A DNA stretch of 38,097 nucleotides from a virus (lineage: Duplodnaviria > Heunggongvirae > Uroviricota > Caudoviricetes): the IMG/VR virus record IMGVR_UViG_2778261087_000005; one strand, 5' to 3'. Positions 2,716-10,222 of the stretch are shown here, piece by piece. Both the position numbers and the translations under genes were made by a program. The notes beneath the pieces were generated by a model that was given only the letters and a program-made list of their open reading frames with translations, was not told where the DNA came from and searched no databases. Within the stretch, counting starts at the first letter, position 1. Every line of letters begins with the position of its first letter.

Positions 2716-3000
2716 TTAGAACGGGCAGCCGGTACGGTGTTCCCAGTCGTATTCCGCCTGGGCGTAAGCAACTGCCGAAATGAAATCGTTGTAGGCCTCG
2801 CCAGCTTTATCGCTGCGAAGTCCTTCGTATGGGCTGGAGTCAATCGGTATGGAGAAGTGGAAGAGGCCGGACGGCTCTTTTGGCATCATGTCGATGATTT
2901 TCTGTGCCCGGTCGTCGATCCACTTCTCTTTCTCGTCGTCGAGCTGCTGCTCAACCCAGCGCCGATCTTCGATTCGGTCGTAAGTGAGGTATGCGTTCAT
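2716..3000 (-). CDS. Hypothetical acidic phage early protein
   Basis: 94-aa ORF; SD AGGAG 7 nt upstream of ATG 3000. Confidence 0.6.
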   Translation of the reverse strand: MNAYLTYDRIEDRRWVEQQLDDEKEKWIDDRAQKIIDMMPKEPSGLFHFSIPIDSSPYEGLRSDKAGEAYNDFISAVAYAQAEYDWEHRTGCPF

Positions 3001-3072
3001 GGCTGAACTCCTGAAATTTGGATGTGCAGATCCCGCCCGCGTAATGCCAGGCCGATCGGTTGAATAGGGTGG

Positions 3073-3270
3073 TTACTGCTGTGCGATGGATTTCGCCGGG
3101 AACTCGCCGTTGCGGAGGATGCTTTCTACCGGCCAGCACTCAGCTGACACTTTCTGCTCTGTAGCTGCCTGGCTGCATTCCTGCTGGCTGTCGTAAACGC
3201 CGAGAATGACATCCTGATAATCACCGTTTGTCATTGCTACGGTCAGGACGAGCGCGAATAAAGTTTCCAT
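3073..3270 (-). CDS. Small hypothetical protein with hydrophobic N-terminus (METLFALVLTVAM...)
   Basis: 65-aa reading from the internal ATG at 3270; that ATG overlaps the stop of the upstream 42-codon ORF as ATGA (translational coupling). Confidence 0.45.
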   Translation of the reverse strand: METLFALVLTVAMTNGDYQDVILGVYDSQQECSQAATEQKVSAECWPVESILRNGEFPAKSIAQQ

Positions 3271-3398
3271 CAGTGAAGAGTCCTCCCGATGGCGACGGCG
3301 TAAAGACGCTTTGCTTCTTCCCACGCCGGAGCATTGCGATGGAGTACCGCGAACGACGCTAGCCGTTGGGCCTCTCTGATCTGCTGCTGGTTTACCAT
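3270..3398 (-). CDS. Small hypothetical protein (42 aa, MVNQQQIREAQRLASF...)
   Basis: Not in the supplied ORF track (below 60 aa); translated by hand; SD AGAGGA 4 nt upstream of ATG 3398; ATGA overlap with the next gene. Confidence 0.4.
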   Translation of the reverse strand: MVNQQQIREAQRLASFAVLHRNAPAWEEAKRLYAVAIGRTLH

Positions 3399-3522
3399 GA
3401 TTTCCTCTTGGCCTTATCGCGGCGAACGGAACGTTAAACAAGACTTCTGCGCTAATGGGCGGTGGATGGCCGCCGGCTGTCATAAATGGGCAGACTCGAA
3501 AATCTGCCTATGTATGGCCGAT

Positions 3523-3543
3523 AAAAAACCCGCCGGAGCGGGT
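3523..3543 (-). terminator. Intrinsic terminator on the minus strand, immediately after the N-position gene (tL1-like)
   Basis: Minus-strand hairpin ACCCGC-uccg-GCGGGU followed by UUUUU; begins 1 nt after the stop codon at 3544-3546. Confidence 0.6.
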
Positions 3544-3699
3544 CTATTTGATGCGTCTTACTAACTGCCCCTGGACATTCACCCCGTCACCCGGCTGCAG
3601 CCTCCATAACTCTGAAAGTTGCAGATCCGTCCATGCGCGAAAATCAATCAACTCACGCAAAGAAAATCCTTTCTGATGATTAACCTCAAATTCTGGCAT
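3544..3699 (-). CDS. Hypothetical small protein in the N position of the leftward early operon
   Basis: 51 aa from ATG 3699 (SD GAGGGTAAGG upstream); the track ORF extends to 3795 only via a TTG start. Followed directly by an intrinsic terminator. No Arg-rich N-like motif, so antiterminator function is not supported by sequence. Confidence 0.45.
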   Translation of the reverse strand: MPEFEVNHQKGFSLRELIDFRAWTDLQLSELWRLQPGDGVNVQGQLVRRIK

Positions 3700-3927
3700 C
3701 GCCTTACCCTCTGTCGTTACCCGCTGATGCGGGAGAAATGCTTTGTGGTGCAGCGCCGGGTGCTTATCTTCCGGTTGCCGTCGATGCAGCTGCAATTCAC
3801 TGCACTACAAAACATTCCAGTTATTGCCGGGGTATTTATCCGCGCCCGGCGCGCGCTTTCCCGCTATTCCCCAACAGCAAGAAATCGCTTACTCTTTAAT
3901 CTCCCCAACAGTAGAAAGGATATATTC

Positions 3928-4149
3928 ATGCAAACCATGCGGACCGTGTGCCCTGACTGCGGAAGTGAGATGTTCAACCAGCCCGATGATTTTGACTTTG
4001 AGACAAATTTCACCGGCGTCAGTTGTGCTGACTGTGGTCGAGAAATCACTAAGGACGATGTTGTCAATCAGGCCACGGACACGGTCAAAAAACAGATCGA
4101 CGACATGCTCAGGAATTCCCTGAAAGGAACTGGCTGGAAGTTCAAGTAA
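3928..4149 (+). CDS. Zinc-ribbon protein (CPDCG...x21...CADCG), Lar-like architecture
   Basis: 73 aa from ATG 3928 with SD AGGA 7 nt upstream; two CxxCG pairs. An antisense 115-aa ORF (3889..4236) with its own good SD overlaps it, so strand assignment is uncertain. Confidence 0.4.
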   Translation: MQTMRTVCPDCGSEMFNQPDDFDFETNFTGVSCADCGREITKDDVVNQATDTVKKQIDDMLRNSLKGTGWKFK

Positions 4150-4580
4150 CTTTAAAAGCTCCCCGGCCTGGGTAAGCACCTCGCTGGCGTCTACGTTAAG
4201 CAGTAGTGGCGCCGTTTTTTTATCTGCCATACACACCCCTCTGTTTGTTTACCGTCAGCCCCTCGCAAAGAGCTGCTGGTAAATCGCTTTGCCATAATTG
4301 CCGCTCTTCCTGAGCCCGCCTATGGTCCGACGCATGGTTTACTGTCGCGCCGTTCGACTGACCAAATCTCCACTTCGCCGCTGGCTAACTTCGCTCAGCT
4401 GTCGATGTTTCGTTTCGATGGATTGATAATGTACCAATAGTTCATTCATGTAAAGTACCATAAGTACATTTTCTGTGAATAGAAAGTTCATATGCAATTA
4501 TCTTTATGAACTTTAAGGAGAAATATTTTTGAGTTTTTTATTGATTGAGGCGAGGGGGGGGATGGGGCTGGTTTGATTTA

Positions 4581-5168
4581 TTAGAGGTTCGTCACATCAA
4601 CAAGCCTTGTGTGACCATTGAAAGTTGCGAAAAGTCCGCCGTCTGGCTCAACTACTGAAAGTTCAGCGTATCGAAGGAAGTCTGTTTTGATAACGGACAT
4701 CAACACCTCTCCGGTATCAATGTTTATGACCTCAAGCCGGTGCGCGTAAAAATCATCTTTGTTTTTGCTGCCGGCAAACGATAGGGCGATGTAGCGCCCA
4801 AATTCAGATATGGACGAACTGATGAGGTGAGTGGAAGTTTCTATCTTGAATAACTCTTTCCCGGTGTTATCCATGACTATGGCTGCAGCCATGTTGTTGT
4901 CTTTGCCGGTATGTATAGAAAATAAAAATCGCCCGTTAACAGCTATGCATTGAGGCTTAGGAGAAAGCTGCCCGCCGAGCTTAACCATAAACATGAATTT
5001 TTCATTCTTCAATACCGCCAGAGTGTCATCTCTGAGATTGCTTTCATCACGCTTGAAAGCACCTAGCTGCCAACATTTATCGTGGCTTAATTTGCAGGTG
5101 ATGAAGTGGTCGCCAAGCTCGTATAAGGCGCTTCCATCACTCAGATCTGTAACCTTAATTGCTTCCAT
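4581..5168 (-). CDS. Unknown 195-aa protein co-operonic with the CI repressor (cargo gene)
   Basis: ATG 5168 lies 11 nt downstream of the cI stop with SD GAGGAAG; no TM segment; visibly more AT-rich than flanking phage genes; no family recognised. Confidence 0.7.
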   Translation of the reverse strand: MEAIKVTDLSDGSALYELGDHFITCKLSHDKCWQLGAFKRDESNLRDDTLAVLKNEKFMFMVKLGGQLSPKPQCIAVNGRFLFSIHTGKDNNMAAAIVMDNTGKELFKIETSTHLISSSISEFGRYIALSFAGSKNKDDFYAHRLEVINIDTGEVLMSVIKTDFLRYAELSVVEPDGGLFATFNGHTRLVDVTNL

Positions 5169-5179
5169 GCTTAACTTCC

Positions 5180-5935
5180 TCAGCTATGAAATCTGTATGC
5201 CCTTGACTGGCTTACCAGCACTTTCGCGCAGATGCGGAGAGAAGAAAAATCACCATCTTCGATGTACCAGGTTTCATATTTTTTATTGTCTGAAATCACA
5301 GCTAATTTTTTGTGCTGCTTTTGAAGTCGCTTTATGTAGAGATCATTGTCCAGAACGAAAATGTATATGCCGTCACCGTCAAAGCAGTCGATGCTGACGT
5401 CGACGAAGATCTGGTCTCGCGGCTCGAACGTGCCAGACATCGAATCGCCATTCACGGCAATCATTTTTATGTGGTCAGCTGGGCGCCCACCAAATACGGC
5501 GCGAGCCTCTTCGGTTGAATACTCTATGGATCGTATTGTTTCAATGAACTCATCTCGCACAAGAATTCCTTGCCCAGCGCTAGCTTGAATATCAAAAACG
5601 TCTACACGGAAAGAATCGTCCCTCATTGCCATATGCCCTTCAGATATGCCATCTGCTGCACTATCGCCTAATAGGTAAGACGAGGATGTGCCAATTATAG
5701 CCGCCAGTTCCTGCAGCTTGCCACGTCTTGGAATAGCCTCCCCATTGAACCACTTGCTTACCGCTTTAGGCGTGAGCTTCATTCGCTTGGCTATTTCAGC
5801 CTGACGTCCATGAGCAGGTAAACCAGCTTTATCACAGGCCAGCGCTAGCCGTTGGGAAAACTCTTTACGCGCTTTTTCTTCTTGAACCATAGGTTCAATC
5901 ATAATATCACTTGCGTGAACTATCAGTTCCGACAT
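5180..5935 (-). CDS. CI-like prophage repressor (N-terminal HTH, C-terminal LexA-type S24 peptidase)
   Basis: HTH region GRQAEIAKRMKLTPKAVSKWFNG; C-terminal AVNGDSM (Ser) and IYIKRL (Lys) dyad motifs. True start may be ATG 5902 or 5890 rather than 5935 (see findings). Confidence 0.8.
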   Translation of the reverse strand: MSELIVHASDIMIEPMVQEEKARKEFSQRLALACDKAGLPAHGRQAEIAKRMKLTPKAVSKWFNGEAIPRRGKLQELAAIIGTSSSYLLGDSAADGISEGHMAMRDDSFRVDVFDIQASAGQGILVRDEFIETIRSIEYSTEEARAVFGGRPADHIKMIAVNGDSMSGTFEPRDQIFVDVSIDCFDGDGIYIFVLDNDLYIKRLQKQHKKLAVISDNKKYETWYIEDGDFSSLRICAKVLVSQSRAYRFHS

Positions 5936-5938
5936 AAT
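5882..5938. promoter_or_regulatory. Immunity-region operators and pR-like promoter
   Basis: Perfect palindrome TTGAACCATAGGTTCAA (5882-5898) and palindrome GAACTATCAGTTC (5917-5929) sharing a TGAAC half-site; the second sits in the spacer of a candidate sigma70 promoter TTGCGT(5911-5916)-16 nt-CATAAT(5933-5938) facing cro. Confidence 0.45.
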
Positions 5939-5970
5939 ATGTACCTACAGTTCAATTTGAGGGTTAACAA

Positions 5971-6198
5971 ATGCAACCTAAGAACCTTGGCGACATCATC
6001 AAGCAAATCCGTGTACCGGTGGTGGCGAAGGCTTGCGGGCGCACTCCCCGCGCTATCTACAAGTGGATTAACAGCGGTTGCCTGCCGCGTACCGATTACA
6101 CCGGCGAAACAGGTTATGCGTCCAAAATCGCAGCTGCATCTGGTGGTCAGTTTACCGAGAACCAGATCCTTGAAATCAGTAAACCAAAAGCCGCTTAA
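5971..6198 (+). CDS. Cro-like HTH regulator
   Basis: 75 aa, divergent from cI; SD GAGGG 8 nt upstream; HTH-like segment RTPRAIYKWINSG. Confidence 0.7.
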   Translation: MQPKNLGDIIKQIRVPVVAKACGRTPRAIYKWINSGCLPRTDYTGETGYASKIAAASGGQFTENQILEISKPKAA

Positions 6199-6227
6199 CG
6201 GCGGCCCTAACCACGAAAGGGAAAGAA

Positions 6228-6794
6228 ATGCATTCACTTGCGTATCAACAGAGTAGCGGACTTGAACAACGTCCGTTGATTTCGATTTATCAAAGTGTTC
6301 CGCGTAATAACCGTAAGCTAACTCGAATACGGGAGGCAGTTAAGGCCTGGCAAAAAGCTACGCCGGGCCAGTCTCAGGTTCACATTTCTCAGCTGGTTGC
6401 GAAAGAGTGGCTGGCGCGCGGCGGGAAGGGGTTGTTACTGGCAGGTTCTGAACACAACACGAAGCAGAACTTCTTCCGGATGATTAACGATCCGGGCCCG
6501 AAGAACGACAAGGGGTTGATGCTACTGATCCCCGTCATTATCGACGTGATGGCGCGGGATAACGAGAAAGTGGCGAGAGAGTTCGGTCTGGTCGCAAAGA
6601 CTGAGGCCGAACTGATAGCCGAGGCCATGAAAGAGTGCACTGAAGCGCATCAGGCGAAGTTACTTGGTCAGCCGATACAACGCCTTGAGAAAGAGGTGAG
6701 AGAAGCTGCTGAAGCACTGCTGCGCTTCCTGCCAACTGAATCAATCGCTGCGGTGGTGACAAGTCTGGCCGCTATGGCGCCGGGAGTTATGTGA
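6228..6794 (+). CDS. Regulatory protein in the cII position (possibly YdaT-like)
   Basis: 188-aa ORF immediately after cro; function assigned from position only; family not confidently recognised. Confidence 0.45.
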   Translation: MHSLAYQQSSGLEQRPLISIYQSVPRNNRKLTRIREAVKAWQKATPGQSQVHISQLVAKEWLARGGKGLLLAGSEHNTKQNFFRMINDPGPKNDKGLMLLIPVIIDVMARDNEKVAREFGLVAKTEAELIAEAMKECTEAHQAKLLGQPIQRLEKEVREAAEALLRFLPTESIAAVVTSLAAMAPGVM

Positions 6795-9782: not shown

Positions 9783-10067
9783 GTATTATTTACAAGAAAA
9801 CAGTAACACCATCTGAAGATTTGGCCTGAGTACTATTCAGCCGTTCGCGCAGGACAGAAGCGTGCAGAGCTCAGATGGAATGACCGAGATTACCAGGCAG
9901 GCGACAATCTCGATCTGTGCGAGTGGGACCCGAACGAAGAAGCCTTTACCGGTGAATTCACCAAAGTCACCGTTACACATGTCGCTGAACTTGGTAACTG
10001 GATACCGGGTTATGTACTGCTGAGTAACGCTCTTTTATCGCCAGCAGTGGATGTGAAAACGACCTGA
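9779..10067 (+). pseudogene. DUF3850/ASCH-like gene, apparently frameshifted near codon 10
   Basis: ATG 9779 opens a 16-codon ORF (MSIIYKKTVTPSEDLA). The conserved DUF3850-like body (HHLKIWPEYYSAVRAGQKRAELRWNDRDYQ...) is in another frame, preceded by an in-frame TAA at 9804-9806 with no canonical start. Removing one A in GTAACA (about 9802-9807) joins the two frames. Confidence 0.5.
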
Positions 10068-10222
10068 TGCCTTGCCCATACTGCGATGGAAAGGCTGAAT
10101 TTGATTATGACGACGATAACCTCAATTGGATATCTTGTAACGCGTGCGGAATCGCTGCACTTTATGATCATGAGAAGCCCGTGCTGACGGGCACAGAAAA
10201 CAGTACGGGTGCAATAAATTAG
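10067..10222 (+). CDS. Lar-like zinc-ribbon protein (putative restriction alleviation)
   Basis: 51 aa, MPCPYCDGKAEF...x17...CNACG; ATG overlaps the upstream stop (TGATG). Not in the ORF track (below 60 aa). Confidence 0.5.
   Translation: MPCPYCDGKAEFDYDDDNLNWISCNACGIAALYDHEKPVLTGTENSTGAIN

Follow-up and report, generated by a model that had tools for sequence, protein, structure and literature searches.

The window examined here, meaning the whole stretch of 38,097 nucleotides that was analysed, is an Escherichia coli prophage of the HK639-like lambdoid type. In its pL-proximal region two open reading frames (ORFs) occupy opposite strands of the same DNA. The plus-strand ORF (3928-4149, ATG at 3928, TAA at 4147-4149) encodes 73 amino acids, an ECs_2282-family zinc ribbon (CPDCG...CADCG) followed by a C-terminal helix, and is preceded by a Shine-Dalgarno sequence, AAGGA, at 3916-3920, 7 nt 5' of the ATG. 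The minus-strand ORF (3889-4230, ATG at 4230, stop at 3889-3891) encodes 113 amino acids, is the homologue of HK639 gene 45, and carries its own Shine-Dalgarno sequence, GAGGGG, at 4236-4241, 5 nt 5' of the ATG. The minus ORF contains the entire plus ORF. The shared stretch measures about 220 bases, and the two frames are codon-aligned, such that position 3 of the plus codons is position 1 of the minus codons. The first 27 minus codons (4150-4230) lie outside the overlap and encode the motif AP-h-x-h-x-h-DA[ST]E. The original prediction had described much of this correctly: the two ORFs on opposite strands with the extent of the plus ORF, both Shine-Dalgarno sites, the two CxxCG pairs and the placement of the minus ORF in the pL operon are all as it had given them. 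Its start at ATG 4230 for the minus ORF also holds, but this start gives 113 residues, and the length of 115 that had been reported requires the alternative start GTG 4236.

The minus ORF is the first on the pL/put transcript. A candidate pL promoter, TTTACA-17-CATTAT, is found on the minus strand at 4426-4454 (9/12 in a consensus scan), about 70 nt upstream of an element that is near-identical to an annotated feature of HK639 (NC_016158). This element, which occupies 4227-4352 on the minus strand immediately ahead of the minus ORF, is a putL-like antiterminator RNA with a putative role in read-through: the window from 4352 to 4227 aligns to HK639 with almost no mismatch, and the predicted fold consists of two stem-loops with a minimum free energy of -42.1 kcal/mol and a z-score of only -1.8. 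A search of Rfam with positions 3000-6500 (E up to 1) returned only a chance rsmX match on a terminator hairpin, and Rfam holds no put family. Further along the pL operon an intrinsic terminator is found at 3523-3545 on the minus strand, consisting of the hairpin ACCCGCUCCGGCGGGU followed by UUUUUU. The order of pL, put and ORF is that of HK639, where gene 45 and its putL-like RNA occupy the same locus; the position of the candidate promoter fits the "putative pL" of that phage, although the sequences diverge there. A 23-nt inverted repeat (3511-3533 and 4211-4233) is also present in HK639. Two roles were weighed for it, in marking an invertible cassette and in pairing RNA over a long range, but it is not conserved in the lineages beyond HK639.

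Upstream of the plus ORF lies a candidate promoter at 3867-3895, with a -35 element TTCCCC (3867-3872), a 17-nt spacer and a -10 element TACTCT (3890-3895). The copy in the window is weak (6/12) and was not reported by the consensus scan. An element made up of TT[TC]CC[AC] and TAnnnT, separated by 17 nt (by 15 nt in one lineage), is nevertheless found 60 to 64 nt upstream of the plus ATG in 14 of the 21 lineages compared (less than 85% nucleotide identity), and in four of them it scores 8-9/12 against the sigma-70 consensus. Overlying this element on the plus strand (3866-3911) are two direct repeats, DR1 ATTCCCCAACAG at 3866-3877 and DR2 TCTCCCCAACAG at 3900-3911, whose copies are 33-34 nt apart. 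In 12 lineages they are kept in the form TCCCCAACA or TCCACAG, and the region lacks 3-periodicity (changes of 9/7/8 at the three positions). A further conserved element, at 3826-3855, consists of GC-rich interleaved helices in the order a-b-a'-b'. Helix A is GCCGGG/CCCGGC in the window and GCCTG/CAGGC or CTGGG/CCCAG in other lineages; helix B is CGCGC/GCGCG in the window and CACGC/GCGTG, CCATGC/GCATGG or CCAC/GTGG elsewhere.

The zinc-ribbon gene on the plus strand

The plus ORF is, by profile comparison, a clear member of the NCBIfam family NF047912 (ECs_2282 zinc-binding family), and is putatively zinc-binding: it scores 83.3 bits against a cut-off of 37, with residues 7-63 aligned to positions 4-60 of the 60-position profile. 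Both knuckles of the predicted zinc ribbon, CPDC and CADC, are present, and among 29 homologues C11, C33 and C36 never vary, whereas conservation of C8 is 90% or higher. The gene had originally been called Lar-like, and the second such gene in the prophage. This identity is not supported by the score of the 73-residue protein against the Lar model TIGR03655 (17.0 bits, cut-off 39.6), and the other zinc ribbon of the window (10067-10222) likewise falls below that cut-off with 19.1 bits. A literature search for ECs2282 gave no papers. The AlphaFold2 (AF2) model of the plus protein has a mean pLDDT of 67, which is moderate confidence only, and neither Foldseek against the PDB nor an HMM search of PDB sequences returned a significant structural neighbour. 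A profile search of genome contigs with the plus alignment gave 3 loci only, and no terminator was found for the plus gene.

Across the overlap, substitutions fall at plus codon positions 3, 1 and 2 in the numbers 106, 45 and 31, position 3 thus being the most variable. Changes that are synonymous in the minus frame and radical in the plus protein were accepted in 0 of 199 cases, whereas those synonymous in both were accepted at 0.46. Purifying selection on the plus frame is clear from these figures and, because that frame dominates substitution across the overlap, the plus ORF is certainly coding. Its Shine-Dalgarno sequence (AGGA/GGAA type) and its ATG are kept in diverged homologues.

The antisense frame on the pL transcript

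The start of the minus ORF is conserved as well. In all 13 of the diverged homologues examined, a purine-rich Shine-Dalgarno sequence and an aligned ATG are retained despite differing flanking DNA, and an in-frame start with the N-terminal motif is found in 17 of the 21 lineages. The codons outside the overlap, judged by their substitutions, evolve like coding sequence: the changes at codon positions 1, 2 and 3 number 38, 23 and 56 (26 of the 27 codons counted), pN/pS is 0.57-0.59, the lowest among the six frames, the motif and its Met are conserved across lineages, and indels are in frame. The tail of the protein past the plus ATG is variable in length and its sequence is not conserved. The presence of both ORFs, each with its start and Shine-Dalgarno sequence, in homologues diverged to about 61% nucleotide and 34-45% protein identity is beyond chance.

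In every context seen, the minus ORF points in the same direction as all the genes around it. It is first after the putL-like RNA in the HK639-type prophage and follows N in N-type relatives, and the spacing after the upstream gene can be short (2 nt in lineage L161; 22 nt after N in L167). Its product is predicted to be an alpha/beta protein of about 100-113 residues, with an AF2 mean pLDDT of 70.8, no worse than that of the plus protein, and of moderate confidence only. Searches of Pfam, PHROGs and PADLOC gave only a weak match to phrog_29546 (22 bits), Foldseek against the PDB and BFVD and an HMM search of PDB sequences gave no significant structural neighbour, and a profile search of genome contigs with the minus alignment gave nothing.

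Selection on the minus protein within the overlap must be read through that on the plus protein, and the naive minus pN/pS there, 1.15, is uninformative as the plus frame confounds it. A more telling comparison concerns the one-step neighbours that are synonymous in the plus frame. By this test, which is a heuristic of our own and is not tree-aware, such changes were accepted at 0.23 when radical in the minus protein and at 0.55 when conservative, a ratio of 0.43 (column-bootstrap 95% CI 0.26-0.59). The corresponding values in six control genes of the same loci were 0.38 and 0.41 (ratio 0.92, CI 0.81-1.03). The depletion of radical changes holds within four-fold codon families and when split by transition/transversion and by amino acid. 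It also persists when each lineage is represented by a single sequence, when the HK639 cluster is left out or taken by itself, and when the two halves of the gene are treated separately. Neither of the other minus frames has such a depletion (0.51 versus 0.44, and 0.35 versus 0.58 with n = 26), and stop-creating changes were accepted there in 27 of 38 cases. The codon choices of the plus gene agree with this pattern in detail: A-ending Gly codons, which place Ser in the minus protein, are used freely, and A-ending codons are avoided for Thr, Ala, Val and Pro, for which the minus residue would be Cys, Tyr or Trp. By these measures the minus frame also shows frame-specific selection.

An open antisense frame by itself is unsurprising here, because the plus protein has just 5 Leu/Ser codons able to give antisense stops (P(open) about 0.4). 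A table of Leu/Ser codon usage was not retained as a stand-alone test, there being too few codons at risk. The minus frame is open across the zinc-ribbon core in 16 of the 21 lineages, against 7.4 expected from local codon usage; the Poisson-binomial P is 7e-5, or 0.02 under conservative usage, in a test that treats lineages as independent. The N-terminal extension is kept in 18 lineages, namely the 17 with an in-frame start and one (L165) in which it is interrupted by a stop, and in 16 of these 18 the open frame extends as far as the plus gene does. In the three that have lost the extension (L158, L162 and L163) the core carries 1-3 stops each and the plus ORF is intact, so that open frame and retained extension are associated (16/18 versus 0/3, Fisher p about 0.0075). 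Pooled over all lineages, synonymous changes that create antisense stops were accepted at 18%, no different from the 19.5% of the controls; a count of 0/41, taken from the open lineages only, was dropped as circular.

This last result is what would be expected if the plus gene alone were functional across the overlap and the minus ORF were a short leader peptide, with 27-34 N-terminal residues that matter and a tolerated run-on. The dominance of the plus frame in overlap substitution, the scarcity of Leu/Ser codons (per-lineage P(open) from 0.14 to 0.70) and the unconserved C-terminal tail are all in keeping with this explanation, as is a Yersinia lineage (L168) in which the minus ORF is cut by a stop to 34 residues with its N-terminus retained. 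A leader peptide is still an unlikely account of the locus: it leaves unexplained why radical changes in the minus protein are depleted in both halves of the overlap, in all subsets and in this frame specifically, and why nearly every start-keeping lineage is open as far as the end of the plus gene.

Alternatively, it might be the act of translation that matters and not its product, with ribosome transit shielding the pL mRNA against Rho, RNase III or duplex formation with the plus mRNA. An ORF with conserved Shine-Dalgarno sequence, ATG and open frame, at the 5' end of the pL operon and opposite a convergent gene, would be well placed for such a role, and neither protein has a recognisable fold relative. 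Protection by ribosomes predicts avoidance of stops, however, and not selection on amino-acid properties. That radical changes are depleted, and that Cys, Tyr and Trp are avoided in the minus protein, points to constraint at the level of the product, as does the conservation of the N-terminal motif as protein. Furthermore, Put-modified RNA polymerase, as known from HK022 put, is expected to be Rho-resistant and should already withstand Rho. This explanation is accordingly improbable.

The reverse reading, in which the minus ORF alone is real and the zinc ribbon is its shadow, has in its favour that gene 45 is the sole annotation of HK639 at this site and that the minus ORF always runs with its neighbours, but it is effectively refuted because minus position 1 is the most variable (106 changes against 45 at position 3), a pattern that no sole coding frame could produce, and it also conflicts with the near-invariance of the four Cys, with the 83-bit match to NF047912, with the survival of the plus ORF in lineages with broken minus frames (L158, L162, L163, L165 and L168) and with the conservation of the plus Shine-Dalgarno sequence, ATG and promoter-like element.

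The best explanation, to which we assign a probability of roughly 65%, is that this is a conserved dual-coding locus in which both ORFs are real genes. The minus ORF would devote its first 27 codons to sequence of its own and then traverse the entire zinc-ribbon gene in antisense, codon for codon. The original prediction held that only one of the two ORFs is likely real; this is contradicted by comparative evidence, namely selection on both frames, the conserved minus start and the coding-like extension. Every distant member of the minus family bears the antisense imprint of CP[DE]C and CxxC, which means that no minus protein has been seen that lacks the plus gene; the plus gene, by contrast, does occur without the minus ORF. 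In one lineage (L169) it is the plus gene that looks damaged (CPDGGS, stop lost), with the minus ORF still open.

Proposed expression of the pair and its relation to known systems

The arrangement suggests how the two genes might be deployed. The zinc-ribbon protein would be read against the early leftward operon from its own sigma-70-type promoter, which appears weak and is probably regulated, the repeated motif lying at -35 and again near +1. The first ORF of the pL transcript, which immediately follows the putL-like antiterminator RNA, would encode the minus protein. While pL is repressed in the lysogen, the zinc-ribbon gene could be expressed. Upon induction, strong antiterminated transcription from pL would yield the minus protein and would silence the plus gene, both by transcriptional interference and by the formation of RNA duplexes. 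Since the two transcription units converge and overlap completely, we infer that their expression is mutually exclusive and depends on the state of pL. It is a tentative suggestion that the lysis-lysogeny switch picks between two functional proteins on opposite strands, and that the nested pair, the interleaved hairpins and the repeat-bearing promoter have moved together between Enterobacterales phages that differ in their systems of immunity and antitermination. The lysogen would then make a zinc-ribbon protein, possibly a defence or regulatory factor, and induction would bring on the antisense early protein and shut the zinc-ribbon gene off.

Several known systems resemble parts of this locus. 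Antisense or convergent control is exerted by lambda OOP RNA on cII, by P22 sar on ant and in the excludons of Listeria, and the silencing of an opposing gene by a strong transcript, as proposed here, is akin to these. The antisense partner in those systems is a non-coding RNA or the mRNA of neighbouring genes, whereas at this locus the antisense sequence seems to encode a protein of its own. With lambda N and HK022 nun the minus ORF shares the position of first gene after pL (after put here, after N in the relatives). Unlike N and Nun, the minus protein is acidic and without an arginine-rich motif, and no similarity to their families was found. The zinc-ribbon protein is reminiscent of Lar of the Rac prophage, which has a CxxC...CxxC ribbon, and of lambda Ral, whose gene lies just downstream of N, in that all are small proteins of the phage early region. 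It differs in being encoded opposite to the early operon and, as described above, in scoring well below the Lar cut-off.

Fully nested antisense pairs of protein-coding genes are rare and often disputed, and most claims for such pairs in bacteria are based on expression data from a single strain. The present case runs the opposite way, with comparative evidence from about 20 phage lineages pointing to selection on both frames. Close parallels are the embedded antisense genes reported in E. coli O157:H7, for example ano, antisense to ECs2385 (PMC5960689), and three more in strain EDL933 (PMC9927249); as at this locus, a protein-coding ORF is embedded antisense in another gene. The O157:H7 cases are reported to be based chiefly on RNA-seq and Ribo-seq from a single strain (PMC5960689, PMC9927249), whereas the pair described here is known from comparison across many Enterobacterales phage lineages, in which it is kept down to 34-45% protein identity and selection is seen on both frames.

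The apparent dual coding has left its mark on public annotation. In HK639 (NC_016158, lineage L012) the minus protein is about 98% identical to that of the window and the plus ORF is 100% conserved, and the GenBank record annotates the minus ORF with no mention of the antisense zinc ribbon. PGAP annotates the plus ORF in identical E. coli prophages and leaves the minus ORF out; its call is moreover lengthened to 157 amino acids (3676-4149), though the conserved start is ATG 3928. Edwardsiella phage Edno5 has the minus ORF annotated as gp50 (34% protein identity), opposite an intact antisense zinc ribbon of 70 amino acids. Some part of the surrounding 1.3-kb region is matched in 456 of 5,426 complete E. 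coli genomes. Dual coding would explain why the annotations disagree, and annotators who kept one ORF only were probably each half right. As the original prediction had foreseen, the choice of strand alters how the pL-proximal region is read, and with HK639 retaining only the minus gene and PGAP only the plus gene, rules that allow one gene per locus therefore lose real information either way. The locus is easy to test, since single-base changes can disable either ORF and leave the other protein unchanged. If the toggle by pL is true, it would be a compact tie of two alternative proteins to the two life-styles of the phage.

Two opposed frames in an HK639-like prophage

In this stretch, a lambdoid E. 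coli prophage resembling HK639, one reading frame lies antisense to the whole of another. The plus ORF (+, 73 aa) starts at ATG 3928, ends with TAA 4149 and contains the motifs CPDCG and CADCG; AAGGA stands 7 nt before its ATG. The minus ORF (-, 113 aa) extends from ATG 4230 to the stop at 3889-3891, with GAGGGG 5 nt before the ATG; a start at the upstream GTG 4236 gives a 115-aa version. The original prediction was accurate on the coordinates, the CxxCG pairs and both Shine-Dalgarno (SD) sequences, and on the minus ORF being co-directional with the leftward early operon: all neighbours share its strand, and the plus gene is the lone opposite-strand gene, in every phage context seen. The frames are codon-aligned, with plus position 3 opposite minus position 1, and shadow ORFs are found most often in this antisense register. 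With no more than five Leu/Ser codons in the plus protein, it is unremarkable (P ~0.4) for a single sequence to be open in that frame.

The locus is already known, its strands having been annotated separately. Identical prophages processed by NCBI PGAP carry only the plus gene, as an "ECs_2282 family putative zinc-binding protein" (an NCBIfam family), and the GenBank record of phage HK639 carries only the minus ORF, as gene 45, with a "putL-like antiterminator RNA" directly 5' of it and a putative pL further out. A limited literature search found no source recognising gene 45 and ECs_2282 as a nested pair, and no matches to ECs2282.

The plus ORF is a genuine gene and is not Lar. The description of it as Lar-like fails on its scores, which are 17 bits with TIGR03655 (cut-off 39.6) and 83 bits with NF047912 (cut-off 37). 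That description also implied a first Lar-like protein, presumably the 51-aa ORF at 10067-10222 (+), a second zinc ribbon in the window (CxxC...CxxC), which falls short of the Lar cut-off (19.1 bits against 39.6), scores 16.5 bits with ECs_2282 and is not a confirmed Lar. The Cys ligands of the plus protein are invariant or nearly so among homologues, and its start is conserved at ATG 3928 with its SD, or in some lineages 3 codons further upstream. The PGAP model (157 aa, 3676-4149) and other database entries (109-120 aa) are longer, the part of the PGAP model upstream of the conserved start shows no conservation as protein, and given that start the longer models are probably over-extended, apparently running through the gene's own promoter region. 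The only lead towards function, not a test, is a pair of weak similarities, one to PDC-M14A, a PADLOC defence candidate (24.6 bits, E = 6e-6), the other to phrog_4852, a longer phage family whose 194-residue profile is matched in its N-terminal part; they may point to a defence-related or domain-sharing family. AF2 models were of moderate confidence for both proteins, giving a zinc ribbon plus helix for the plus protein (pLDDT 67) and a strand-helix-helix-hairpin-helix layout for the minus protein (pLDDT 70.8), and neither had significant structural or PDB-sequence neighbours.

Constraint on both strands

Homologous loci were gathered from viral contigs, genomes, assemblies and phage records into 21 lineages with <85% nucleotide identity between them. 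A purine-rich SD stands 5-10 nt before the aligned minus ATG (GTG in one) in 13/13 diverged homologues examined, among which the DNA further upstream differs. In the 26-27 minus codons outside the overlap, from the minus start to the plus stop, changes by position number 38/23/56, a coding pattern, and pN/pS is 0.57-0.59, the lowest among six frames; the motif AP-h-x-h-x-h-DA[ST]E is conserved and indels are in-frame only. This N-terminal extension is kept in 18 lineages, with an in-frame start in 17 of them, and in one (L165) is broken by a stop. A plus gene accompanied only by a short translated minus leader could give such an N-terminal pattern, and the minus C-terminal tail past the plus ATG, with 9/7/8 changes and a variable end, is not conserved as protein; this reading is nonetheless unlikely. 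The minus frame is open over the whole zinc-ribbon core in 16/21 lineages vs 7.4 predicted by local codon usage (Poisson-binomial P 7e-5, or 0.02 with conservative codon frequencies, lineages being assumed independent). Sixteen of the 18 extension-keeping lineages are open, and the three without the extension (L158, L162, L163), two of which sit among chromosomal genes, have 1-3 core stops and an intact plus ORF (Fisher p ~0.0075).

The pair is also conserved at depth. In Edwardsiella phage Edno5 the annotated gp50 is 34% identical to the minus protein and an intact, unannotated 70-aa zinc ribbon lies antisense to it, and a Klebsiella myovirus-like context keeps both ORFs. A caveat comes from the minus family as a whole, for which a profile HMM run against 1.84 billion representative proteins gave 36 clusters of ~95-125 aa: all distant members keep [AT]-[IVL]-R-[AT] and [AT]xx[AT], the marks that CP[DE]C and CxxC leave on the antisense strand, so that the minus protein is never seen without the plus gene. 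Two lineages are natural reciprocal variants: in Yersinia (L168, 3199-3303) only 34 aa remain of the minus ORF and the plus gene is intact, and in Salmonella (L169, 3001-3264) the plus gene looks damaged (CPDGGS, with a Cys ligand and the stop lost) and the minus ORF is open.

Selection inside the overlap was assessed with a heuristic of our own, not tree-aware, in which a plus-synonymous one-step neighbour is scored as accepted when its own alignment column also contains it, and a change is radical in the antisense frame at BLOSUM62 ≤ -2. In the minus ORF frame radical changes were accepted at 0.23 vs 0.55 for conservative ones (ratio 0.43, 95% CI 0.26-0.59), and in the aligned antisense frame of six control genes at 0.38 vs 0.41 (ratio 0.92, 95% CI 0.81-1.03). 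The depletion persists in four-fold codon families, split by transition/transversion and by amino acid, is present in each half of the gene, and holds with one sequence per lineage (0.39), without the HK639-like cluster (0.42) and in that cluster alone (radical 0/28 vs conservative 40/138). For the same changes the other two minus frames show no depletion (0.51 vs 0.44; 0.35 vs 0.58, n = 26) and accept stop-creating changes freely (27/38). A-ending Thr, Ala, Val and Pro codons, whose antisense residues would be Cys, Tyr or Trp, are avoided, a pattern by amino acid that is not found in the control genes; a general dislike of A-ending codons is ruled out by the free use of GGA (Gly), with antisense Ser. 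The absence of stop-creating changes in open lineages alone (0/41) is circular, and with all lineages pooled their acceptance (18%) equals the control rate (19.5%), so that the stop argument rests on the contrast between lineages that kept and lost the start. That translation of the minus ORF matters and its product does not would fit that contrast, and is improbable given a depletion that follows the encoded residues.

Constraint on the plus frame is plain. Counted over 64 unique homologous sequences, the overlap has undergone at least 106, 31 and 45 changes at minus codon positions 1, 2 and 3, making plus position 3 by far the most variable; minus-synonymous one-step changes that are radical in plus were seen in 0/199 cases, against an acceptance of 0.46 for one-step changes synonymous in both frames, and a minus ORF standing as the only gene can be dismissed as very improbable. 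At the level of sequence, these comparisons show that both ORFs are conserved, that each has start signals of its own and that both frames are under selection. The original view that only one ORF is likely real was not upheld, since constraint falls on both frames, with the minus start, N-terminus and frame-specific radical depletion beside the plus constraint. That both ORFs are genes is the favoured reading, with a probability of about 0.65.

Candidate signals for opposed transcription

The ~130 nt upstream of the plus ATG are conserved above the level of coding sequence and travel with the gene pair, and the non-coding module at 3826-3920 is conserved among phages whose proteins are just 44-60% identical. 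It contains interleaved GC-rich helices (a-b-a'-b', 3826-3855) whose arms change in a compensatory way, a -35-like TT[TC]CC[AC] (3867-3872, +), a 17-nt spacer (15 nt in one lineage) and a -10-like TAnnnT (3890-3895, +), the promoter-like elements lying at a fixed distance from the ATG in 14/21 lineages. The invariant -10 positions, T1, A2 and T6, are the most important consensus positions for sigma-70. A direct repeat, TCCCCAACAG (TCCACAG in other lineages), occurs at 3866-3877 and 3900-3911, its copies 33-34 nt apart, one on the -35 element and the other at ~+1. The element reads as a weak sigma-70 promoter, probably factor-dependent. Among the lineages compared the module is absent from those in orphan and odd contexts, and no terminator for the plus gene was found.

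On the minus strand, alignment to the HK639 feature places an almost identical putL-like antiterminator RNA, whose predicted minimum-energy fold has two stem-loops, at 4352→4227, with a pL candidate upstream (4454→4426) and an intrinsic terminator downstream of the ORF (~3545→3523); the minus ORF is therefore the first on the pL transcript, a position held by N or nun in other lambdoid phages. In every phage context it follows its upstream gene tightly, for example by 2 nt in one lineage (L161) and by 22 nt after an N gene in another (L167). No N gene was seen around 4227-4454. Given the near-identical putL-like RNA and the pL candidate, antitermination in this prophage is probably RNA-based, of the HK022 type. 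The sequence comparisons also show a conserved promoter-like element upstream of the plus gene and, ahead of the minus ORF, a put-type leader.

Several further features surround the pair. A 23-nt inverted repeat (3511-3533 / 4211-4233, 87% complementary), also in HK639 and not conserved in other lineages, has one arm over the minus start codon and first codons; its other arm takes in the downstream terminator's U-tract and tail, which would let the two arms pair inside a pL read-through transcript. The segment 3735-3800 has short matches in P22-like phages, among them one annotated in phage CUS-3 as "bsq5; boundary sequence", a sign that a mosaic recombination joint may lie just downstream of the pair. 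A 195-aa ORF (4581-5168, -) directly follows the CI-like repressor gene (5180-5935), where lambda has rexAB; it has no match in Pfam, NCBIfam, PHROGs or PADLOC and could be a lysogen-expressed accessory gene.

A possible lysogeny-induction switch

Embedded antisense overlapping genes of the same kind have been reported in EHEC (PMC5960689, PMC9927249); those are reported to be backed mainly by expression data, the present pair by deep comparative conservation. The logic proposed here would resemble the convergent or antisense control of OOP/cII, sar/ant and excludons, unlike which the antisense stretch is apparently itself coding. The two transcription units would be convergent and fully overlapping, so that transcription from pL should produce the minus protein and also silence the plus gene. 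In the lysogen, where pL is repressed, the zinc-ribbon gene could then be expressed, and after induction antiterminated pL transcription would yield the minus protein and shut the zinc-ribbon gene off.
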